Below are positions 59 through 40,536 of a DNA stretch of 41,510 nucleotides, piece after piece. The stretch lies in sequence record NC_047742.1. One strand, 5' to 3'. The position numbers were made by a program, and so were the translations under genes. Position 1 is the first letter of the stretch. The number at the start of each line of letters is the position of its first letter. The notes under the pieces are model-generated. The model did no database searches, was not told the DNA's origin, and worked only from the letters and a program-made list of their open reading frames with translations. The DNA comes from Enterobacteria phage IME_EC2.

Positions 59-103
59 ATAGCACGAATTGCTAAAAGCGATTTATCAAATGTTGTTATA
101 GTT
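59..103 (+). promoter_or_regulatory. Promoter-like cassette copy 1: dyad ATAGCACGAATTGCTAAAA, 22-bp spacer, TATAGT
   Basis: Read directly; same dyad recurs 6 times, always upstream of the first ORF of a gene block and in the same orientation relative to it. Confidence 0.5.
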
Positions 104-148
104 CTTTCACCGGGCGGCAATGGGTCGCCCACTACCGGAGAGATAACG

Positions 149-397
149 ATGGCAAACTTAACAATCATGGTAAAAGGCGATCAAGAGCGCGGGCGTCAGT
201 GGTCACGTAACTTTAAAAACCTGCTCCCGGCGTTCGTGAAAACTGGCACAGTTAAGCGCTATCTCTCATGGAAAGCGCCGGAGTTAACAGGCGAGGAGCC
301 GGAACTGGAGGAGCGCGTGGACGAGTTCATGACTCGCGGCGAGTTCGAACTGAATCGCCTGATCCACCGTAACAAGATCCGCGCCGACGAGTATTAA
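149..397 (+). CDS. hypothetical protein (83 aa)
   Basis: ORF 41..397 trimmed to ATG at 149 preceded by GGAGAGA; first gene after promoter cassette copy 1. Confidence 0.55.
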   Translation: MANLTIMVKGDQERGRQWSRNFKNLLPAFVKTGTVKRYLSWKAPELTGEEPELEERVDEFMTRGEFELNRLIHRNKIRADEY

Positions 398-1388: not shown

Positions 1389-1416
1389 AAAAGGGCCTTT
1401 GCGGCCCTTTCTTTTT
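1389..1416 (+). terminator. intrinsic terminator (AAGGGCC-TTTGC-GGCCCTT + T-run)
   Basis: GC stem followed by CTTTTTTC, directly after stop of ORF 1055..1366. Confidence 0.7.
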
Positions 1417-1464
1417 TCATTTACCCTTTTAGCGTTCACTCACTTGTTAAAAGGGATCCCTCCA

Positions 1465-3616: not shown

Positions 3617-3688
3617 AATTTTGTCCTCGTGAAATTGTGCGGTATACTGCCCCGGCATTGTAGATCATCTCTGGCGTTAAAACGAAAG

Positions 3689-3718
3689 GAGCCGCTTTTT
3701 AAGCGGCCCTTTTTTTTA
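3689..3718. terminator. intrinsic terminator (GAGCCGC-TTTTTAA-GCGGCCC + T8)
   Basis: Stem-loop flanked by T-run on plus side and U-rich on minus side. Confidence 0.65.
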
Positions 3719-3817
3719 GAGTACCATCGACACGCCGAAACCGATTAAAGCCCACAGCGCGGCGCTTGCTGCGATTACGCCCCATATAACGTATTTGTGT
3801 CCGCGTAAGTTGTTCAT
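3716..3817 (-). CDS. small hydrophobic protein (33 aa, one TM)
   Basis: ATG with strong SD (AGAGGGGAA), overlaps upstream stop as ATGA; short, so uncertain. Confidence 0.45.
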   Translation of the reverse strand: MNNLRGHKYVIWGVIAASAALWALIGFGVSMVL

Positions 3818-4206
3818 GCGATTTTCCCCTCTTTCTTGAATTTTGCCAGGCGTCCGCGAATTGAAGGACGCGATTTGTTGAGCCAGTTCGCGACGTGCGC
3901 GTGAGTGAGTTCGGTCGGCACTATCACCCGGCGACCAGTGGCGATCACCAGTTCGTCCAGATCCTCGTCGGTCAGAAGTCCCTCCCAGAAGCGGACCAGC
4001 TTCCGGTCCTCCTCCGTCGTCCATTGCGTGTACGTCCGGTTATACGCCAGGGAGAGGCCCAGCTTAGAGGCCCGGACCTGCATCTGGCGGAAGTTGCGAC
4101 CGATGCGCTTCGCCAGTTCGTGCGGCGGCATGGTCGCGGCGAGGCGGGTCAGTTCCGCGTCCTGCTCGTCAGTCCACCCGATAATCTGCGCTGTTACTTT
4201 ACCCAC
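3814..4206 (-). CDS. putative DNA-binding protein with two GcrA/Myb-like WT-x-EED repeats
   Basis: GTG start with AGGAGG 7 nt upstream; GWTDEQDAEL...ASKLGLS and QWTTEEDRKL repeats resemble the GcrA N-terminal domain. Confidence 0.55.
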   Translation of the reverse strand: MGKVTAQIIGWTDEQDAELTRLAATMPPHELAKRIGRNFRQMQVRASKLGLSLAYNRTYTQWTTEEDRKLVRFWEGLLTDEDLDELVIATGRRVIVPTELTHAHVANWLNKSRPSIRGRLAKFKKEGKIA

Positions 4207-4477: not shown

Positions 4478-4685
4478 ACGCCCCCCGGATAAGTTCGCGG
4501 GCGTCGTTCTCCGCCTGGACCGCTTCGCGGGTAAGTGCTGCCTTTGCCAGTGGCCCCGCCGCGTACATCTTGAGGCGGTTGCGGAGGATCATCGCTGTCT
4601 CGATCAGGATATGCGCCTGTTTCAGTAACAGCGGGTTCACGATCTGAGCCTTGTTTGTTTTGGTGTGGAGTAATGTCTGTTTCAT
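4458..4685 (-). CDS. hypothetical protein (75 aa)
   Basis: ORF 4458..4748 trimmed to ATG (MKQTLL) with GAGGA upstream; first gene after promoter copy 2. Confidence 0.5.
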   Translation of the reverse strand: MKQTLLHTKTNKAQIVNPLLLKQAHILIETAMILRNRLKMYAAGPLAKAALTREAVQAENDARELIRGAYGYPAH

Positions 4686-4740
4686 TGCTTCGTCCTCGTG
4701 TTGGTGTGAAAGAATAATAACAAAGGATAAGCGGCATTGC

Positions 4741-4758
4741 TTTAGCAAAAAGTGCTAT
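4741..4758 (-). promoter_or_regulatory. Promoter-like dyad copy 2 (ATAGCACTTTTTGCTAAA on minus strand), -10-like TATTAT 22-23 bp downstream
   Basis: Read directly; lies between a terminator and the next minus-strand gene. Confidence 0.5.
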
Positions 4759-6352: not shown

Positions 6353-6994
6353 TTAAATCATCGTTTTGCCTTCGAACATCATTTCCGCCTGGGTCAGATA
6401 TTCAGTCTTGATCGGTCCGCGCTTCTTCGGCTTGATAACGAACATCACGGACGGCTTGCTGTTTTTCTTGCCCGCGACTTCGGTCCCTGCCTTCACGAAC
6501 GCCACGCGCCCGGAGTTCTCTCCGTCGCTGGTGATGTGAATTACCAGGCTCCCGGCGTCCAGCGCCTTCTTAAACCACGCCGTGGACGCGTCGGAGTTCA
6601 GGAGGAAAACGGTCGTAACGTCGCGATCCTTCGCTTGCTGGATGGCCTTCACGATCCACGGAAGCGGCTCGGCGTAAGGAGGATTGCACCAGGCCAGCCC
6701 GCCCTCCGCGCCCCAGTCTACGCCGTCCTTGAGGGCGTCCGTTTTCTCGTCCAGATAGACGTCACAAAGCGCGTTTGCTTTCTCCGCTGCGACGTCGATC
6801 CCGAACTGCCCGAAGCGCTTCACAGCCCAGTCGAACAGCCAGCGCGGGGTCTGCCACTTCTGACGGATAGCGTCCGGCGTCTTGGACTTGTTGAAGCGGC
6901 GACCGCTAACAGTGGTCACGTCTGCCGCTGCGCGTTCCGCTTCGGTCATGCCGTCCACATGGTCGATCGTGGTGGTGTCTTTCTCGTCTTTCAT
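6353..6994 (-). CDS. phage N6-adenine DNA methyltransferase (Dam family)
   Basis: WQTPRWLFDW near N-terminus and catalytic-type motif NPPY (LAWCNPPYAE), typical of phage N6A-MTases. Confidence 0.8.
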   Translation of the reverse strand: MKDEKDTTTIDHVDGMTEAERAAADVTTVSGRRFNKSKTPDAIRQKWQTPRWLFDWAVKRFGQFGIDVAAEKANALCDVYLDEKTDALKDGVDWGAEGGLAWCNPPYAEPLPWIVKAIQQAKDRDVTTVFLLNSDASTAWFKKALDAGSLVIHITSDGENSGRVAFVKAGTEVAGKKNSKPSVMFVIKPKKRGPIKTEYLTQAEMMFEGKTMI

Positions 6995-7049
6995 CTGCTG
7001 CCCTTTTTTGGTTGGTGGTGACTAACGATAATTGATTAACTGTTTTGTG

Positions 7050-7068
7050 TTTTAGCAAAAAGTGCTAT
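7050..7068 (-). promoter_or_regulatory. Promoter-like dyad copy 3 (ATAGCACTTTTTGCTAAAA on minus strand), TATCGT 22 bp downstream
   Basis: Read directly; about 58 bp upstream of the Dam start codon. Confidence 0.5.
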
Positions 7069-7968: not shown

Positions 7969-8030
7969 CTTGCCCTCCTGAGTTTTCCCGGTTACTATAA
8001 ATCACGCTTTAATGATATTACAAGGAATAA

Positions 8031-10073
8031 ATGGAAATGGTCGAGACATTAGAAAGGCAGATCGCGGCCCTCGATCGCGACGCCATTCTCCGCGCCCTCG
8101 GTGATATGCCCGTAACGCCATACGATCACCAGTTCGTCGCATATGAGGCTTGCGCGAAGGCTATCCGTAAATATCCGGGGCCTGTCATTGTGGACGCCGC
8201 CGTGAGCGCCGGGAAAACCATCATGATCTCCATGCTGGCCCGCCGGATCAGGGATATGGGATTCCCCGCCATGATCCTGTCCCGCCAGGGTGAGATCATC
8301 GATCAGGACTTCGAGGAGTTGCGGAACTTCGGCGTAAACTCCTCGATCTACTGCGCCAGCTTAGGCCGCAAGTCTGCACACTTCCCGATCGTCGTCGGCT
8401 CCGAGGGTACAGTGATCGGAGGGATCCGCCCAGGCCAGCCCCTCGCCCATTACGCGCCGTTGTTCCTGCTGATCGATGAATGCCATCACGTCAACATTGA
8501 GGACCTGATCCGCTCGGAGGAGCGCGTGGTCCCGGAGTACCTGCGGGACGATAACGGGACCGTTATCCTCGACGGCTTCGGGGATCCGACCATTATCGGC
8601 GAGCATAAGGGCGAGACATACGAGGAGATGATCGAGGCGGGTCGCTCCAGTTATACGATCATCATCCGAACGTTACAGGCCCGCGCCCGGTCAGTGTACG
8701 GGAAGGAACTCCGCATTATCGGCTACACTGGGACGCCTTACAGGGGCGTGGAGTCCATCATCCAGCCAGACCTCGAACAGCCCGGATTCTGGCGTGAAAA
8801 GGTCTGCGAGATCTCGACGGAATACCTCGTCAGCGTTGGCGCTGTCGTTCCGACTCACTTCGGGATCTCCAATCTCCACTACAACCTCGACCAGTGGCGA
8901 TCGACGGGTGAGGACGGCATTAAGGAGTTCACGGACTCCGACATGGACGCCATGCAAAAGGCGATCCTGAAAGAGAAAAAGCTCACTCATGAGATCATGG
9001 CGGAGGTCTACGCCATCGCCCAGCACAGGAACGGCGTGTTAGTGACGTGTGCGGGCGTGAGACACTGCAAACAGGCGGCGGAGGCCCTTCCCCCTGGTAC
9101 GCCTTACGCCATCATTACGGACGACACGACGGGCAAGAAGCGCATGGACATTTTGCGCCGCGCCAATACCGGGGAGATCAAGTTCATTTTCCAGGTTAAC
9201 GCCCTAACGACTGGCGTTAACGTCCCGTTCTGGGACACGTCCGTGATCCTGCGGAAGATCGGCTCCCTCACGCTCCTAACCCAGCTTTTAGGCCGTGGGA
9301 TGCGAATCCTTAAGCCGTTCCACATCGCCGCCGGGGTGACGAAAGAGGATCACCTGGTTCTCGACTACGCCGGGACGCTGGACGAACTCGGATCCCTGTA
9401 CTTCTCCCCGCTGCTGGAGGCATATCAGCACAGCGCCGACGAGAGCAAAGGAGAATTAGAGTTAGACTGTCCGAAGTGTCGCAAGGCGGGCCATCCTACG
9501 CTCAACGGCAAACACGCCCGACGCTGCCGCTACGTGGACGAGAACGGCGATCGCTGCGAACACTTTTTCCAGTTCATCACCTGCGACGACTGGAAGGACG
9601 CCAGCGGGCGGAAAGTGGTCCAAAAGGGATGCGGGGCGCAAAACGACATAGTAGCCAGGATCTGCCGCTGCTGCGGGAACTCGCTCGTAGATCCGAACAA
9701 GAACTTAAGCCGGACCACGTACAGCCGCGACGACTACGCGACCGTGAGAGGGTTCAGAATTGAATTAGCGCGAGGGACTGGGGGGATCGCCTTCCGGTAC
9801 GAACTGGAGAAGGACGGGGACCAGTTTGTGGCCTGGCAAGTATTTTGGCCCGGTAGCGACTCGCCAGCGGCGAAAAAGGAATGGGTCCATAATGGCATCC
9901 TTAAGCACGTCCTGGACGGCAAAATGAGGGCCACGATCAAGAAATGCCGGACGCCCCAGCAGGTATTAGAGTTCGCCCCGTACTTCATGGCCCCGCTTAA
10001 GGTCAGCCACCGGAAGATCGGCAAGGGTAAAGACGTTATCACTAACAAAATTTTCATGAATGAGGAGTTTTAA
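8031..10073 (+). CDS. SF2 DNA helicase (DExH box) with C-terminal Cys-rich zinc-finger region
   Basis: Motif I AAVSAGKT, motif II DECHH, motif VI QLLGRGMR; C-terminal CPKC...CRY...C...CRCC. Confidence 0.8.
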   Translation: MEMVETLERQIAALDRDAILRALGDMPVTPYDHQFVAYEACAKAIRKYPGPVIVDAAVSAGKTIMISMLARRIRDMGFPAMILSRQGEIIDQDFEELRNFGVNSSIYCASLGRKSAHFPIVVGSEGTVIGGIRPGQPLAHYAPLFLLIDECHHVNIEDLIRSEERVVPEYLRDDNGTVILDGFGDPTIIGEHKGETYEEMIEAGRSSYTIIIRTLQARARSVYGKELRIIGYTGTPYRGVESIIQPDLEQPGFWREKVCEISTEYLVSVGAVVPTHFGISNLHYNLDQWRSTGEDGIKEFTDSDMDAMQKAILKEKKLTHEIMAEVYAIAQHRNGVLVTCAGVRHCKQAAEALPPGTPYAIITDDTTGKKRMDILRRANTGEIKFIFQVNALTTGVNVPFWDTSVILRKIGSLTLLTQLLGRGMRILKPFHIAAGVTKEDHLVLDYAGTLDELGSLYFSPLLEAYQHSADESKGELELDCPKCRKAGHPTLNGKHARRCRYVDENGDRCEHFFQFITCDDWKDASGRKVVQKGCGAQNDIVARICRCCGNSLVDPNKNLSRTTYSRDDYATVRGFRIELARGTGGIAFRYELEKDGDQFVAWQVFWPGSDSPAAKKEWVHNGILKHVLDGKMRATIKKCRTPQQVLEFAPYFMAPLKVSHRKIGKGKDVITNKIFMNEEF

Positions 10074-10541
10074 ATGTCCGTACTGAATAAAAAGACTGAG
10101 TTCTGGCGCGAGTTCTATCTGGACCATATCCCGACCTACTCGCCACACGAGGACGTCGAACAGCAAAACATGGCGAGCAACATCCGGGAGATCTACGGCG
10201 ATCCCCTCACTGATCCCGACGCGCTGCTGGCGTTCCACCCAGTAAACGAGAGCGGCGGCTCCAGCGATCCCCGCTACGGGGCGAAGTTGAACGCGCTCGG
10301 ACGACTGGCGGGGATCTCGGACTGGGTGATCCTTGAGCCTCGCGGTGGCTATGGCTTCGCGCTGATCGAGTTGAAGCGGAACAGCCGGAGCAAATCACGG
10401 CTTAAGCCGGAGCAAAAGGAGATCCTCGAACGGGCGCGGGCGCGTGGTGGCTGGACTGCTGTCGCGTGGGGCTGCGAGGCTGGCCTGGCTGCTCTCGAAT
10501 ATTATCTTAAATTACCCGTTGCAAACATCACGAAAGAATGA
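10074..10541 (+). CDS. VRR-NUC domain nuclease
   Basis: DWVILEP...GFALIELKR...LKPEQKEILERARARGGWTAVAW pattern of VRR-NUC PD-(D/E)xK nucleases; start overlaps helicase stop. Confidence 0.7.
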   Translation: MSVLNKKTEFWREFYLDHIPTYSPHEDVEQQNMASNIREIYGDPLTDPDALLAFHPVNESGGSSDPRYGAKLNALGRLAGISDWVILEPRGGYGFALIELKRNSRSKSRLKPEQKEILERARARGGWTAVAWGCEAGLAALEYYLKLPVANITKE

Positions 10542-10580
10542 TTTAATCTTTCTCACACCAACAACGTGAGAGAGAACAAA

Positions 10581-11624
10581 ATGGAAACAGCATTCGACCT
10601 TATCCCGGCGCTGCCATCGTTCGACGTTGGCGCGTCGCTTTTCGTTAGCGCTCGCGACGCCGATCAGTTGACTAACGAACAGTACCACGAGGACGAGATC
10701 TACATTACCGGGTCGAGCCTCTGGACCATTTACAGCAAATGCCCCGCCGCGTGGCGCTTCCAGAAGGCACAGGAAGCGAAAGCGAAAAAACTCAATTCCG
10801 CCCAGAAGCCGCTCACATTCGGGACCACTTCCCACACGATGTTACTTGAGCCGGATCGCTTCGCTCGTGAGTTCTTCCGTCTGCCTAACCCGGACGACTT
10901 CCCGGACCTGATCACCTCTGTAGCGAAGATGCAAAGCTGGTTAAAGGATCGAGGCCAGAAGGGCTACTCCAACAAAACCGCCGAAGAACTGATCGCGATG
11001 TGTCGCGCTGTCCAGGCCCCGGACGAAGTGCTCCACATCTGGCACGAGATCGAGGCGAACGCCATCAAAGAGGCGAACGGTCGCGAGATCGTCCCGGCGA
11101 AGGACTGGGACCGCGTTCACTCAATGCGCGACGTTCTGCTGGCTAACCACAATTACCGCCGGATCATTGAGACGGGGGTCCCGGAGTTGTCGCTGTTCTG
11201 TATTATCGACGGCGTTCCCGTTAAGGTCCGACTCGACCGCGTGACGGACGTCGGGGAGATTATCGACTTTAAGACGACGCAAAGCGCGGAGCCGGAGAAG
11301 TTCGGGCGACTGGCCCACGATCTCGGCTACTGGTGCAAAATGGCTTTACAACATGATTGTTTCAAGTTGGCCTACCAGCAGGATCCGAACGGTACGAAGT
11401 TACTCGTACAGGAAAAAGACGAGCCGTGGCTGGCCCTCATGAATCGCTTAACGCCGGAACAGTTGCTCGTCGGTCGCGGTCAGTACAAGACGGCGCTCCA
11501 GGTCCTCAAACACTGCCGCGAGCGTGACGTGTGGCCCGCCTATGCGAACGGGCAAGAGGAGATCGCGCTTTCTACTCCGGCATACTTACAACAACGTTAC
11601 AAAGAATATTTTAAAGAGGTGTAA
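10581..11624 (+). CDS. PD-(D/E)xK family exonuclease (recombination exonuclease-like)
   Basis: IIDFKTTQ...HDLGYWCKMALQ nuclease-type motifs; sits directly upstream of ERF and SSB; trimmed to ATG with GAGAGA SD. Confidence 0.55.
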   Translation: METAFDLIPALPSFDVGASLFVSARDADQLTNEQYHEDEIYITGSSLWTIYSKCPAAWRFQKAQEAKAKKLNSAQKPLTFGTTSHTMLLEPDRFAREFFRLPNPDDFPDLITSVAKMQSWLKDRGQKGYSNKTAEELIAMCRAVQAPDEVLHIWHEIEANAIKEANGREIVPAKDWDRVHSMRDVLLANHNYRRIIETGVPELSLFCIIDGVPVKVRLDRVTDVGEIIDFKTTQSAEPEKFGRLAHDLGYWCKMALQHDCFKLAYQQDPNGTKLLVQEKDEPWLALMNRLTPEQLLVGRGQYKTALQVLKHCRERDVWPAYANGQEEIALSTPAYLQQRYKEYFKEV

Positions 11625-11626
11625 TC

Positions 11627-12349
11627 ATGGAATTTTCAACCGATAAGAATCAGATCGTAGTCGCAATGGTTAAGGCTCGCGCCGCCATGATGTCAGAAGC
11701 GAAAAAGAACACGCAAAATAATCACCTCCATAACTGGTACGCGGATTTAGGATCCTTCCTGGCGACCGTTCGCCCTGCTCTGGAGTCGAACGGGCTGATC
11801 GTCATTCAGTCCCCACTCCCGGCGGTGGAAAAAGGCGGGATGCTCGTCCTACCGCTGGAGACGATGATCCTCCACGAGTCCGGCGAGTTCATGAGCGCCG
11901 TTATGGAGATGCCGCTGGCGTTTAACCCCAAAAGCGCCCCGGCTCACGCTGTCGGCTCGGCGATCACCTATGCCCGACGCTATCACCTGGCGGCTCTGTT
12001 CGGCATCACCCAGGCAGACGACGACGGCAACGCGACGAAGAAAACCGCCCGTCAGTGGATCGAGGACCTGAAAGGGATCGAGGACGTCGAGAAGCTGGAC
12101 GAAGCCGTGGGCCGTATTGTCCACAATCTGGCAGACGATAAGGCGAGCGTGAAGGTCGTCCGTGACTGGCACATTTCCCGCAAAGCGGAACTTCGCGCCA
12201 GCGAGTCGAAAGGATTTAATCCGGCCTCGGTTGTCCAGAAGAAAAAAGCCGCCGATAATGCCCCGGCAAAAGAACAGCCCGCCGCCCCGGTAGAACCACA
12301 GCAGGAAGCGCCAGCGGCGGACGATAAACCGAACATTGAGGAGTTCTAA
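11627..12349 (+). CDS. erf: ERF-family single-strand annealing protein
   Basis: [16 protein letters not shown] resembles the conserved ERF core; gene order exo-ERF-SSB. Confidence 0.7.
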
Positions 12350-12351
12350 AC

Positions 12352-12903
12352 ATGGCATCACGCGGCGTTAACAAGGTGATTCTGGTCGGCAATCTGGGCC
12401 AGGATCCCGAAGTGCGTTATATGCCGTCGGGTGGAGCGGTGGCGAACATTACGATCGCCACCTCTGAATCCTGGCGCGACAAGCAGACGGGCGAACAGAA
12501 AGAACAGACGGAATGGCATCGCGTCGTATTGTTCGGCAAGCTGGCGGAGGTCGCCGGGGAGTATCTGCGCAAGGGTTCACAGGTTTACATTGAGGGCCAG
12601 CTTAGGACGCGCAAATGGACGGACCAAAGCGGCGCGGAGAAGTACACGACGGAGGTCGTCGTGAACGTCGGCGGCACTATGCAAATGCTCGGCGGGAAGA
12701 AAGAGGGAGGCCAGTCTGGGGGGAATGGACCTACCCACTCCGGCGGCGGTGGCAATTCTCGCAATTCTCCGGGCCGTGGCGCGTCTAATTCGCAAAATCC
12801 GGGCAAGGGTAGCGGGTCGGGTCCTGCGTCGTCTGGAGGCGCTTCTGGGGCCTCTAATGGCGGGGAGCCTCCGATGGACTTTGACGACGATATACCGTTT
12901 TAA
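12352..12903 (+). CDS. ssb: single-stranded DNA-binding protein
   Basis: OB-fold SSB N-terminus ([36 protein letters not shown]), Gly-rich linker, acidic tail DDDIPF. Confidence 0.9.
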
Positions 12904-12910
12904 CGGGTGA

Positions 12911-12946
12911 GGCCCTTCGGGGCCGATCCTCCCAGGAGCCGACGAG
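12911..12946 (+). promoter_or_regulatory. UUCG-tetraloop hairpin (GGCCC-TTCG-GGGCC) fused to GATCCTCCCAGGAG SD context, copy 2
   Basis: Near-identical to element at 404-438; directly precedes the HNH start codon. Confidence 0.5.
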
Positions 12947-13387
12947 ATGAAACAATGCGCCATCTGTCACGAATCGAAGCCGCTGGAGGAGTTCCACAGG
13001 AACAAGAGCAAGAAGGACGGGAGGGACTCGCGCTGTCGCCAGTGTAAGAGCGGGCTTTATAAGAGTTACTACCACGGCGATCCAGCCCGAAAGGAGCGGA
13101 TCATCGAAAACGTTAAAACGTACCAGGCCGGACCGGGGCGAGAGAAGGCGAACGCCACAAAGTCCAGCTATCACACAAAACATCCAAAGAAGCGCCGCGC
13201 CCATAATCTGGTTTATAACGCGATACGGCGCGGAGAGCTAACGAGGGGGCCGTGTGAGGTCTGCGGAGCGGAGAAGGTAGTGGGACACCATGACGACTAC
13301 GATCGCCCGTTAGAGGTCCGCTGGCTCTGCGAGAGGCATCATAAAGAGTGGCATCTGGTTAACGGTGAAGCGCTTAACCCAGATTGA
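12947..13387 (+). CDS. HNH endonuclease
   Basis: N-terminal Cys cluster (CAICH...CRQCK) and C-terminal HNH-type motif (VVGHHDDYDRPLEVRWLCERHHKEWH). Confidence 0.8.
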   Translation: MKQCAICHESKPLEEFHRNKSKKDGRDSRCRQCKSGLYKSYYHGDPARKERIIENVKTYQAGPGREKANATKSSYHTKHPKKRRAHNLVYNAIRRGELTRGPCEVCGAEKVVGHHDDYDRPLEVRWLCERHHKEWHLVNGEALNPD

Positions 13388-13444
13388 TTTAGATAACGGT
13401 TTAATGAATAATCACGGAGACGTTAACCAATGAAGGAGCCGATC

Positions 13445-13663
13445 ATGGCAACATTAAAGCCCGTTTGCCTCGTGAAGCAGGTCCGAGAGGCGAAAGGCAT
13501 CCAGCAAAAAGATCTGGCGGAACGCGTAGGCATGATCGCCCACCAGTTGAGCCGATACGAGAACGGGCACGAGTTGCCACATATTACTAACCTCTGCCGA
13601 CTCGCTGCCGCCCTGGACGTGTCGATCGCAGACCTGATCGAGTATGGAGTGAATCATGATTAA
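13445..13663 (+). CDS. XRE-family HTH transcriptional regulator (Cro/CI-like)
   Basis: KGIQQKDLAERVGMIAHQLSRYENG HTH signature; second ATG chosen because AAGGAG lies 6 nt upstream (ORF track start 13430 is an alternative). Confidence 0.75.
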   Translation: MATLKPVCLVKQVREAKGIQQKDLAERVGMIAHQLSRYENGHELPHITNLCRLAAALDVSIADLIEYGVNHD

Positions 13664-13940
13664 GTCCGGCCTTAGCTTTAGCGAAGCTCTGATCGCAGTG
13701 AAGGAAGGTTATAAAATTGCCCGCGCTGGATGGAATGGCGCTAATCAATTCGTGATCAAGGCTGGCGGGTATACCGTAAACGAGCCGCGACCGGGTAGTG
13801 ATTATGCAAAGGCCGGGATCACTGGCGAATTTACGATCGCCCCGCATCTTGATCTTAAAAATGCGCAAGGCGTAATGCAACCGGGTTGGGTCCCATCACA
13901 GGGCGACCTGTTCGCCAATGACTGGACGATCTTACGCTGA
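13656..13940 (+). CDS. DUF2829-like protein (Tad2-type fold candidate)
   Basis: FSEALIAVKEGYKIARAGWNG near N-terminus and C-terminal DLFANDWTIL resemble the DUF2829 pattern; overlaps HTH stop. Confidence 0.5.
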   Translation: MIKSGLSFSEALIAVKEGYKIARAGWNGANQFVIKAGGYTVNEPRPGSDYAKAGITGEFTIAPHLDLKNAQGVMQPGWVPSQGDLFANDWTILR

Positions 13941-24968: not shown

Positions 24969-25012
24969 TGTAAATCCTCTTTGTGTGATGTTTCCCGGCT
25001 AGTATATGCCAT

Positions 25013-25038
25013 AAAAAAAGAGGAGCCAATGGCTCCCC
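25013..25038 (-). terminator. intrinsic terminator after coat gene (GGAGCC-AAT-GGCTCC + U7)
   Basis: Hairpin followed on minus strand by CTTTTTTTAT, directly after the coat stop. Confidence 0.75.
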
Positions 25039-25057
25039 TTTTGTATTGCTGCGCGTC

Positions 25058-27740: not shown

Positions 27741-28173
27741 ACGATCTCGGCGTCCTCCACGTCGTCGTCTTTGCGCGGGTTGACTTCTTTCGCGCTGTCG
27801 GCTGCTGCCACGTAGTCGCCCTCGATCGGGCCTTTGTAGGTCAGTTGTTTGATGCTCGCGATATCGGCGAGGAGTTTCTGTTCCTGCATGTAGAAGTTAG
27901 CGCGGAGTGACTGGAGGCCAGTCTCCAGCAGTGGGAGAGCCAGTTCCGCGATGCGCTCGGCGGTCGGCTCGGTGTAGACGATCTCGATCTCACGAGTTTC
28001 TAACAGGACCATAGCCGGGTCCGTGTTGTCCTTGATGTGCTTCTCCACGCTGTACAGGTCGCCCAGGTCGTGGTCGGAGACGTAAGTCTCCCCGCGCTTG
28101 TAGAAGCTGGAGCGTGTACCGTCCGCGACGCACAGGCAAATGAATTGTTTTTGATGTAAGTTTTAGTAGTCAT
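27737..28173 (-). CDS. hypothetical protein, apparent frame change near 28140 (A5 run)
   Basis: ATG at 28173 with SD opens a frame (MTTKTYIKN) that turns junk-like; the -1 frame is protein-like and continues into ORF 27737..28048, which has no good start of its own. Confidence 0.4.
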
Positions 28174-28248
28174 TTTGTAGTCTCTCTGGTCAGTGGCGGG
28201 GACCATTCCCCGCCGACACAATCAATATAACATTTGATAATCTGGGCG

Positions 28249-28267
28249 TTTTAGCAATTCGTGCTAT
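28249..28267 (-). promoter_or_regulatory. Promoter-like dyad copy 4 (ATAGCACGAATTGCTAAAA on minus strand), TATATT 22 bp downstream
   Basis: Read directly; followed by conserved leader hairpin GGCGGGG-AATGGT-CCCCGCC and SD. Confidence 0.5.
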
Positions 28268-28898: not shown

Positions 28899-28993
28899 TC
28901 AAAACTCCTTTGTAATGGTTTAGTGATGTGTCGAGGCAAAGAATAGCCCGGACTTGCCGGGCTTGTCTTTAGCTTTTCGTGCGGTCCGACCAG

Positions 28994-35939: not shown

Positions 35940-36140
35940 TTAAAAGCCGTCGTAGTAGCCAGGCAGTGCGCGGAGAGCCGCTTCGTCGTCGATCAGGTCC
36001 CACTCGGTCGGCTCAATGTCTGCCGCCTCTGCCATCTCGTGGGCGATGATACCAGCCACCAGCGGGGAGACGTTGCCCGTCGCTTTCTGGCGCTCGATCT
36101 CTGCCTGAATATCTGCGAGTGTATCGGATAATGATTTCAT
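35940..36140 (-). CDS. hypothetical protein (66 aa, acidic)
   Basis: ATG with GGGAGA SD; first gene after promoter cassette copy 5. Confidence 0.55.
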   Translation of the reverse strand: MKSLSDTLADIQAEIERQKATGNVSPLVAGIIAHEMAEAADIEPTEWDLIDDEAALRALPGYYDGF

Positions 36141-36211
36141 GATGTTCTCCCGGTCAGTGGCGGGACCATTTCCCGCCGTCAGAAGAACTATAACAACATT
36201 TGATAAGTGCG

Positions 36212-36230
36212 TTTTAGCAATTCGTGCTAT
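36212..36230 (-). promoter_or_regulatory. Promoter-like dyad copy 5 (ATAGCACGAATTGCTAAAA on minus strand), TATAGT 22 bp downstream
   Basis: Read directly; flanking about 90 bp nearly identical to copy 1 (inverted) and copy 4. Confidence 0.5.
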
Positions 36231-37389: not shown

Positions 37390-37518
37390 CGTAACGTCCA
37401 GGCCGCGCTTAACTGCGTATTTTTGGTGGTTGCGTTGACTGCTGTCATGGTCTTGCCCTCTGAGTTGGTGGGCGTCTCGTCGCCCGGTGAAAACATATTA
37501 TCAATTATCACCGGGGAC

Positions 37519-37537
37519 GTTTTAGCAATTCGTGCTA
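37519..37537 (-). promoter_or_regulatory. Promoter-like dyad copy 6 (ATAGCACGAATTGCTAAAA on minus strand), TAATAT 22 bp downstream
   Basis: Read directly; overlaps the stop of the upstream small ORF. Confidence 0.5.
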
Positions 37538-37717
37538 TTTATCCTTTCTCATTCGACGGAGTGATCGGACCAGATCGACGACGGCCCAGCCAGACGCCAG
37601 CAGGAACGGCGCGAGGACCGCCAGCTTTTCCCAGTTGGTCAGGATCGCGTCGGTCCCTCTGGTCATGCCGATCCAGGCTATCACCAGGACCTCGTAAGCG
37701 AAGGCGAGCCAGATCAT
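37535..37717 (-). CDS. small membrane protein (60 aa)
   Basis: Two hydrophobic segments; ORF track. Confidence 0.45.
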   Translation of the reverse strand: MIWLAFAYEVLVIAWIGMTRGTDAILTNWEKLAVLAPFLLASGWAVVDLVRSLRRMRKDK

Positions 37718-38455: not shown

Positions 38456-38640
38456 TTCGCATCACTTATCAATGATTATTTAAGCGGGGATTTTTCGGGG
38501 GTGGCCCCCGATTTTTACCCCCTGATTTCCGCATTAACGATTTGCCATAAACCTGTTAACACTTCTCTTGTAACTTCATGAATCTGTTATGTTAATTTTC
38601 AGTTCATAGTTAACGTTGTTTAGACTTTCCGGCATATGTT

Positions 38641-38692
38641 GTTAACGTTACGCGTTTATCCCTCTCTCTATAAGAGAGGGGATAACGTTAAC
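38641..38692. repeat. 52-bp imperfect palindrome (GTTAACGTTA ... TAACGTTAAC outer arms) in AT-rich iteron-like region
   Basis: Outer 10-bp arms are exact reverse complements; inner arms TATCCCTCTCTC / GAGAGGGGATA nearly so; further GTTAAC(GTT) copies nearby. Confidence 0.6.
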
Positions 38693-38848
38693 GGAACACA
38701 ACGCCCCGTTAAAAGTCACTCAGATCGTCGGATCCTTCGGTCGGTTTCCAGTCGGTCGGGAGTGGCTTCTGATCCCGGATTCCACCCAGGAGCGGAGCCG
38801 CTTCGGTTGAGGCGGTCAGCGTTTCGTCCCCTGCCATTTTGATGATCA

Positions 38849-40396: not shown

Positions 40397-40536
40397 TGTC
40401 TTTTCCCTGCTGCGTTAATAAAGTGTTCATAACTTAACAGTGATTCATAACGCCGTCAATCCGCACCAGTAAAGAAAACTCTTTACATCACTGTTACGTC
40501 ATGTATGCTTAAAGACGAACAACAACGGAGGCGAAC

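Follow-up and report, generated by a model that had tools for sequence, protein, structure and literature searches.

The region at 36,141-36,230 raises the question of why one promoter-leader segment of about 90 bp recurs in front of unrelated genes, and which factor would read it. The DNA analysed (the window, 41.5 kb) represents, essentially in full, the genome of a virulent Murrayvirus podophage with P22-like structural genes. Identity is 97% with Escherichia phage sortsyn and 84-88% with KMB41, ST231 and Lumpael. Its gene map, derived from annotated relatives, is included in Table 1. Some features of the map are described here in their own right. A 94-aa ORF (13656-13940, +) encodes a Thoeris anti-defence Tad2-like domain (PF11195, E = 2e-22), and among nine relatives only sortsyn has a copy. 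A non-coding stretch of ~390 nt (38456-38848) is rich in GTTAAC motifs and also has a long palindrome (GGGATAAC..tatccctctctctataagagaggggata), and an intergenic inverted repeat (TTAACAGTGAT / ATCACTGTTA, 40397-40536) adjoins the gene for a 515-aa AAA-ATPase/RepA-like protein. Either region may be an origin or hold early promoters.

A preliminary description had listed five copies of a dyad and suggested that, around three of them, a cassette of promoter and leader had been duplicated onto different operons. The three cassettes were indeed found, at 59-151 (+), 28171-28267 (-) and 36138-36230 (-), and measure 93, 97 and 93 nt, respectively, from the first base of a conserved 20-mer through the ATG. 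Pairwise alignment gave 75-81% gapped identity. This similarity extends beyond a short shared motif, with 68-76% identity when the 20-mer is left out (z = 6.6-10.4 compared to shuffles), and a repeat search groups the three as one family plus one pair. All parts that had been noticed are present in each cassette: the 20-mer, the 10-mer TTATCAAATG, which has no other exact matches in the window, a -10-like box (TGnTATAGT/TATATT), a hairpin with a G+C stem of 7-8 bp and loop AATGG, followed by CACTGACC/CACTACC, an SD and the ATG. The genes that come first behind the cassettes are mutually unrelated (blastp E > 10). The sequence comparisons support reading the cassettes as promoters with leaders, placed before unrelated genes.

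The count of dyad copies had to be revised to six exact 20-mers (also indexed at 62+, 4755-, 7065-, 28264-, 36227- and 37535-) and one degenerate copy, and the three cassettes are part of a set of six or seven promoters in the genome. A fourth module, at promoter 37538, has the same architecture of -10, hairpin, SD and ATG with ~67% identity. An inverted repeat flanks its -10 (CCCGGTGA..TAATAT..TCACCGGG, 37508-37515 / 37483-37490). The 4758 and 7068 copies have TTT in place of GAA at the centre of the 20-mer. Promoter 7068 drives the Dam methylase operon; promoter 4758 has an extended -10, TGtTATTAT (hexamer 4714-4719), with a terminator directly upstream. In the first gene behind P28267 an A-run (28148-28152, -) is A5 in the window and A6 in sortsyn, which shifts the frame after 7 codons relative to the 156-aa sortsyn_51; the cause may be an error of sequencing or a genuine disruption.

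The 20-mer itself, ATAGCAC(GAA/TTT)TTGCTAAAAC, had been called a dyad, and its core is a perfect 5-bp inverted repeat, TAGCA-N5-TGCTA, in all exact copies. Nevertheless, a symmetric operator is not borne out. Conservation around the palindromic core is asymmetric, with ATAGCAC and TTGCTAAAA(C/G) invariant, and the invariant 3' AAA(A) flank has no matching 5' TTT. Variants found in orthologs alter one half-site only, by which the dyad is broken and the marbox consensus discussed below is still kept. Furthermore, the 20-mer is co-oriented with the downstream gene in all six window copies and in all exact copies of five other Murrayvirus genomes. The asymmetric flank, the one-half-site variants and the strict orientation argue against a symmetric dimer operator of the Cro/cI type; the 20-mer behaves as an oriented, asymmetric site.

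Comparison with sites of host regulators gave a close match. The 20-bp MarA/SoxS/Rob consensus (marbox), AYNGCACNNWNNRYYAAAYN (PMC2064960, PMC3709825), agrees with each of the six window copies at 19 of 20 positions, these copies being paralogs and not independent matches; the sole mismatch, an A at position 19, is shared by micF. The 15-mer consensus derived for MarA by ChIP, gcannwwntgnnaaa (PMC12052159), matches the window exactly six times, compared to an expectation of 0.13 from shuffles, and every match is one of the paralogous promoter copies. To the reverse complement of the high-affinity mar marbox GATTTAGCAAAACGTGGCAT (PMC11633057), the phage element is identical at 15-16 of 20 positions. 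Paralogs and orthologs vary at positions 3, 8-10, 11-12, 14 and 20, where the consensus has N, W or Y and the changes are permitted, and one variant breaks Y2. All six N positions vary within the window's family, while GCAC, G13 and TAAA are constant. In 81 distinct phage sites, a set that is partly biased since its IMG/VR loci were partly picked with the phage's own consensus, G4, C5, A6, G13 and A17 are nearly invariant and have the highest information content; they lie within RE1 and RE2, the recognition elements contacted by MarA. Position 10 is A/T and position 14 is C/T, each in 95% of these sites, and positions 8, 9 and 20 are unconstrained. Compared with host marboxes the phage sites vary less, A3, T11, T12 and A19 being conserved, which could mean that a different, more specific protein is involved. 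The degenerate copy past the portal gene, with a terminator-like hairpin (28945-28963) and TATTCT behind it, is kept in all Murrayviruses, and related IMG/VR contigs (L086, L103) have a perfect marbox there.

Table 1. Coordinates of transcription units and promoter-leader features in the window.
Feature	Position	Strand	Remarks
Rightward operon	from ~149	+	small ORFs, then holin, endolysin, spanin (operon of P1)
Leftward operons	from 4685 and 6994	-	methylases, RusA-like, others
Replication/recombination block	8031-13940		rightward
Long leftward series	~38.4 kb to 14 kb		small ORFs, terminase, portal, scaffold, capsid, tail, tailspike
P1 marbox-like 20-mer, ATAGCACGAATTGCTAAAAG	59-78	+	exact gcannwwntgnnaaa; 19/20 to AYNGCACNNWNNRYYAAAYN
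P1 18-nt spacer and -10	79-102	+	TTATCAAATG 83-92; extended -10 TGtTATAGT, hexamer 97-102; no -35 hexamer
P1 leader hairpin GGGCGGC-AATGG-GTCGCCC	112-130	+	begins 9 nt past -10
P1 SD GGAGAG and ATG	137-151 (ATG 149-151)	+	82-aa ORF, phrog_33147
P36230 marbox-like 20-mer	36211-36230	-	operon: small ORFs, terminase, portal
P36230 18-nt spacer and -10	36187-36210	-	TTATCAAATG 36197-36206; TATAGT 36187-36192 after TGt
P36230 leader hairpin GGCGGGA-AATGG-TCCCGCC	36159-36177	-	
P36230 ACTGACC, SD GGGAGA and ATG	36138-36158 (ATG 36138-36140)	-	66-aa ORF, phrog_34680
P28267 marbox-like 20-mer	28248-28267	-	operon: scaffold, capsid, tail and ejection proteins
P28267 18-nt spacer and -10	28224-28247	-	TTATCAAATG 28231-28240; TATATT 28224-28229 after TGt
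P28267 leader hairpin GGCGGGGA-ATGG-TCCCCGCC	28195-28214	-	
P28267 ACTGACC, SD AGAGAGA and ATG	28171-28194 (ATG 28171-28173)	-	
Fourth module	37446-37538	-	marbox 37519-37538; -10 TAATAT 37495-37500; ATG 37446-37448
Fourth-module hairpin GGGCG-ACGAGA-CGCCC	37470-37485	-	
TTT-variant promoter without hairpin (7068)	6992-7068	-	marbox 7049-7068; -10 TATCGT 7025-7030; ATG 6992-6994
TTT-variant promoter without hairpin (4758)	4683-4758	-	marbox 4739-4758; 19-nt spacer; ATG 4683-4685
Seventh, degenerate marbox ACCGCACGAAAAGCTAAAGA	28966-28985	-	downstream of portal gene

Several other assignments were considered and rejected. In comparison to the sigma-54 pattern TGGCAC-N5-TTGC, the phage sequence TAGCAC-N3-TTGC has a spacing that is 2 nt short and AG for GG. 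Taking TTGCTA as a -35 box would imply a spacer of 22 nt. The 10-mer TTATCAAATG is not an IHF site, as the TTR part of WATCAANNNNTTR is absent, and a TGCTT-like sequence resembling a MotA box is at the wrong distance from the -10.

The arrangement of the 20-mer relative to the -10 should be considered as well. All window copies are intergenic, with 73-94 nt from the first base to the ATG. The gap to the -10 hexamer is 18 nt in five of the six promoters (TATAGT, TATATT, TAATAT or TATCGT) and 19 nt at the 4758 junction (TATTAT), and exact copies in the other five Murrayvirus genomes keep this spacing. A TGn extension precedes the hexamer in four to five of the six copies; promoter 7068 has neither this extension nor a -35. 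In none of the six window promoters was a -35 box found, the hexamer at that position being AAAACG or AAAAGC (2/6). If transcription starts 7-8 nt past the -10, the predicted centre of the site is at about -41.5 (about -51 to -32). The E. coli micF promoter, read from the chromosome, consists of ACAGCACTGAATGTCAAAAC, 18 nt, TAGAAT, 7 nt and +1, and thus has the same gap as five of the six phage promoters. RamA and MarA bind at about -41 on micF and act as class II activators (PMC8811837), and genome-wide the class II marbox promoters are forward, clustered near -41 and without a -35 (PMC10268841). In sequence, orientation, spacing and the absent -35, the phage promoters thus agree with the definition of class II marbox promoters, and as candidates they show every sequence-level feature of a class II MarA/SoxS/Rob promoter.

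The known class II promoters of E. coli and Salmonella that are activated by MarA, SoxS, Rob or RamA (micF, lpxC P2, lpxL P1, rfaY P1) share with the phage promoters the forward site, 18 bp to the -10, the missing -35 and sometimes an extended -10, and the phage sites agree with both marbox consensus sequences. They differ from the host sites in that they occur in a virulent genome, stand at most transcription units and are far less degenerate, and the activator role at the phage sites is putative. Replacement of the -35 by an activator box is also found in T4 middle promoters (MotA box plus AsiA) and in Mu middle and late promoters (Mor, C). These promoters follow the same principle, in which a good -10 lacking a -35 is combined with a conserved box, set at a fixed distance, through which host RNA polymerase is recruited. 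However, the T4 and Mu activators are phage-encoded and their boxes have other positions and sequences (the MotA box is near -30), whereas the window yielded no activator of the phage's own and its box agrees with the site of a host factor.

The element is not restricted to podoviruses. A scan of IMG/VR for ATAGCACNNNTTGCTAAA gave more than 119 loci, and those with 2-5 copies belong to ~50-kb Webervirus/T1-like phages of Klebsiella, E. coli and Shigella. Phage T1 has ~17 copies, many of them in the early region; in T1, as in many of the Webervirus/T1-like contigs, the copies are located 18 nt before a -10 hexamer. In phage TLS a 21-nt intergenic direct repeat was described with the consensus aaATAGCACnnnTTGnTAAAA and sub-types AAA, TTT and GAA, co-directional with transcription and ~76 nt ahead of the start codon; it also occurs in T1, Rtp and Rogue1, and only three ordinary sigma-70 promoters were found in TLS (PMC11447400). 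The four GAA and two TTT copies of the window match the TLS consensus exactly. The sequence, the intergenic position and the co-orientation are the same, but TLS, T1, Rtp and Rogue1 are ~50-kb siphoviruses (Drexlerviridae), in contrast to the 41.5-kb P22-like Murrayvirus podovirus, and most T1-like copies have a covarying inverted repeat around the -10 and no 5' AATGG hairpin. These flanking arms of 6-8 bp differ in sequence from promoter to promoter, as in GGGGTA..TATAGT.TACCCC, GGGGCT..CATAAT.AGCCCC and AGGCCA..TATAGT.GGCCTT (loci L134 of T1, e.g. 1480-1505, L015, L089 and L094), and their covariation suggests a structure rather than a protein site. No link between the phage repeat and the marbox was found in the literature searched, the TLS paper (PMC11447400) included. 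The element belongs to a described, unexplained phage repeat family, now in a new phage genus, and as far as found its assignment as a marbox is new.

The TLS authors considered stoperator-like, enhancer-binding and UP-element roles and left the function open (PMC11447400), and the promoter geometry bears on these proposals. As an operator or stoperator, the element would be a negative site next to a self-sufficient TG-extended -10, and the extension in four to five of the six copies would allow these to work without a -35. However, a position upstream of the -10 is the place of a class II activator and not the transcribed region where stoperators act, the strict phasing of 18-19 bp and the single orientation correspond to an activation geometry, and promoter 7068 lacks both TG and -35. 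We consider a negative role very unlikely. Still more improbable is an intrinsic DNA feature that requires no dedicated protein, for example a UP element, with which the alpha subunit makes contact. Such a role would be in keeping with the location from -32 to -51 and with the A-tract at the 3' end, but the invariant positions are GCAC and G13 instead of A/T tracts, and conservation is lowest in the central A/T triplet.

In view of the above, we propose, at somewhat better than even confidence, that the cassettes are sigma-70 promoters of class II which depend on host MarA, SoxS or Rob as activator and are provided with a 5' stabilising stem-loop. The 20-mer would be a marbox, an asymmetric site occupied by a monomer of a host AraC-family activator, with MarA, SoxS and Rob, or RamA in Salmonella and Klebsiella, as the candidates. 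Located 18-19 bp upstream of the -10, it would stand in for the missing -35, with the activator contacting sigma region 4 and the alpha-CTD, by which host RNA polymerase would be recruited. The extended -10 (TGn) present in most copies would add strength. Transcription would start 7-8 nt past the -10, leaving 1-3 nt of RNA before a stem-loop that shields the transcript from 5'-end-dependent decay, and the CA-rich spacer, SD and AUG would stay unpaired for translation.

A host factor is the simplest explanation because two unrelated virion types share one oriented site and geometry. The shared site is confined to phages of Enterobacteriaceae hosts and stands before early genes too. A search for MarA/SoxS/Rob homologs among 819 stop-to-stop ORFs of the window (hmmsearch and phmmer, with MarA, SoxS and Rob queries) gave nothing significant, the best hit (E = 0.02) being a 146-aa ORF annotated as endonuclease. 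The phage has HTH candidates of its own: a 77-aa XRE protein (13430-13663, +) and a 130-aa multi-HTH-like protein (3814-4206), which is phrog_323, "transcriptional regulator, D5-like". Such a phage-encoded protein, or one delivered with the virion, could use the element as its own activator site, occupied either by a dimer on the TAGCA-N5-TGCTA dyad or by a monomer with two HTHs, in which case the likeness to a marbox would be coincidence or mimicry. This would account for the perfect inverted repeat in every exact copy and for the high conservation of positions that are left free in host marboxes. Yet both candidates are 70-75% conserved in the sister genus Sortsnevirus, which is without the element, and the XRE protein more plausibly targets a separate class of operators, ATCA-N8-TGAT. 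Variants that spoil the dyad and keep the marbox also argue against this explanation. The T1-like phages share the element, but no common regulator is detectable by BLAST: the only proteins that T1 has in common with the window are Dam, primase, helicase, VRR-NUC, exonuclease VIII and Erf, tblastn revealed no small regulator common to both, and the 130-aa protein gave E = 49 in BLASTP against T1 ST23. Moreover, the T1 element precedes early-region genes, for which the factor would have to be present at injection. Regulation by a phage-specified protein is in our judgement rather unlikely.

For the proposed use of host activators, the amounts of these proteins are a concern. Rob is constitutive and the tightest binder of marboxes but largely sequestered, and MarA and SoxS are scarce in unstressed cells (PMC10268841). 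Such low levels raise doubt about their driving the main promoters of a fast lytic phage. Expression of soxS is strongly induced by several phage infections (PMC12795941). The putative marbox-driven operons also contain strong intrinsic terminators, at ~1390-1420 (+), ~25005-25040 (-) and ~3660-3700 (-), located ahead of the lysis genes, after the major capsid gene and ahead of a decoration/tail gene; these imply that read-through or unrecognised internal promoters must exist.

The leader hairpin begins 9-10 nt past the -10 in every hairpin-bearing copy of both genera, which places it at a predicted 1-3 nt from the mRNA 5' end. The stems (GGGCGGC/GTCGCCC, GCCGGGG/CCCCGGC, GGCGGGA/TCCCGCC, GGCGGGG/CCCCGCC) show two-sided changes in four of seven pairs with 100% of the cells paired, and slid controls collapse. 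The P36230 hairpin is identical in KMB41 and Sortsne and has a compensated G-C pair in ST231. Structure prediction for the leaders returned the hairpin as the MFE structure, with SD and AUG single-stranded. The case for a structure rests on covariation, since single-sequence folding gave energy z-scores of only -0.7 and -1.0 for two of the four hairpins, which is unconvincing. An intrinsic terminator or attenuator was rejected, as ACTGACC or ACTACC instead of a U-run follows the hairpin and a terminator scan omits it. No Rfam match was obtained at gathering thresholds for the whole window.

In the ompA paradigm a 5'-terminal stem-loop shields an mRNA from 5'-end-dependent decay. The known requirement for such protection, reportedly described by Emory, Bouvet and Belasco in 1992, is a position right at the 5' end. 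By analogy, a 5' stabiliser against this type of decay is most likely the function of the phage hairpin, and it is the simplest one. The ompA 5' UTR and the nut boxB of lambda and P22 share with it a short G+C stem, the lack of a U-run, compensatory changes, and a 5-nt loop near the promoter. The conserved loop AAUGG goes beyond what a simple stabiliser hairpin needs, and it is kept across paralogs and two genera while the stem covaries. This could point to a regulatory RNA, such as a boxB/nut- or put-like antitermination element, a site for a translational regulator, or a uORF device. Antitermination would have targets in the strong internal terminators, for example those before the lysis genes and after the capsid gene, and a uORF device would fit the AUG of the loop, which either shares the frame of the main ATG or opens a short frame that ends there or directly beside it. 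However, the loop is unlike the GNRA-like boxB loops of lambda and P22, there is no boxA-like partner, a scan of ten small ORFs revealed no N-like protein, and an upstream boxA is improbable because only 1-3 nt of RNA would precede the hairpin at the predicted start. Furthermore, one paralog has the loop ACGAGA and one ortholog AACGG, two marbox promoters have no hairpin, Rfam gave no match, and the location right at the 5' end fits the requirement for stem-loop protection. A regulatory RNA is to us a doubtful option, at a low level of belief. The loop AUGs are at 120-122, 28202-28204 and 36166-36168. In the 36230 leader and in Sortsne the frame closes at a TGA overlapping the main ATG (ATGA), and in the leader at 59 it closes at a TAA 2 nt before the ATG. 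At 28267 and Sortsne P1 the loop AUG and the main ATG share one frame; the annotation of sortsyn_51 begins at the loop AUG.

Comparison with related genomes bears on how the cassettes came to their places. The element is present at the same junctions in all six Murrayvirus genomes examined. At these junctions Sortsnevirus has the same leader hairpin combined with an ordinary -35 and a different operator: no marbox was found in four genomes, the ortholog promoters are TTGCAT-17-TATATT and TTGTGA-17-TAGTAT, and an operator-like motif ATCACGA, related to ATCA-N8-TGAT, occurs in or near the spacers and marks nearly all Sortsnevirus promoters. Since the junctions are conserved across the genus and its sister genus, the promoter sites are old and the cassettes were not recently inserted. 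The proposal of duplication onto different operons thus holds for the unrelated downstream genes but not for a recent drop-in before new operons. Judged from this comparison, the difference between the genera is one of control regions swapped at fixed operon junctions with the 5' hairpin leader kept.

The extra identity among the three cassettes looks like concerted evolution. A 24-nt stretch of spacer and -10 is common to the copies at 59 and 36230 within the sortsyn-like lineage, and in KMB41, Lumpael and ST231 the promoter orthologous to 36230 has TTATCAAATG inverted (CATTTGATAA) with the 18-nt gap kept (L001 36100-36137, L002 3000-3035, L005 2177-2215; window counterpart 36193-36210). The shared stretch and the inverted 10-mer point to gene conversion among promoter copies. 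The ATCA-N8-TGAT operators form a second class and are found at 8001-8016 (+), 10527-10542 (+) and 38461-38476, in the spacers of ordinary sigma-70 promoters of replication and recombination genes, e.g. TTGCAA-17-TTTAAT at ~10515-10545. They are likely the target of the conserved 77-aa XRE-family protein.

More broadly, we see an even chance that T1-like siphoviruses and Murrayvirus podoviruses rely on class II marbox promoters for most of their transcription units, via Rob, MarA, SoxS or RamA. T1 and TLS show very few ordinary sigma-70 promoters, and the marbox reading would offer a concrete mechanism for recruiting host RNA polymerase without a phage-encoded polymerase or sigma factor. The cassettes would also provide a compact set of strong, putatively activator-dependent promoter-leader modules for engineering. 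If the reading is true, phage productivity would be tied to regulators that raise efflux-mediated antibiotic resistance, which would bear on phage-antibiotic synergy and on the choice of therapeutic phages against marR, ramR and soxR mutants, and resistance to the phage could arise through loss of rob, marA or soxS. Phage gene expression would then be coupled to the mar/sox/rob state of the host, as set by bile salts, redox stress or marR/ramR mutations, and the soxS induction caused by infection itself (PMC12795941) could also feed phage expression.
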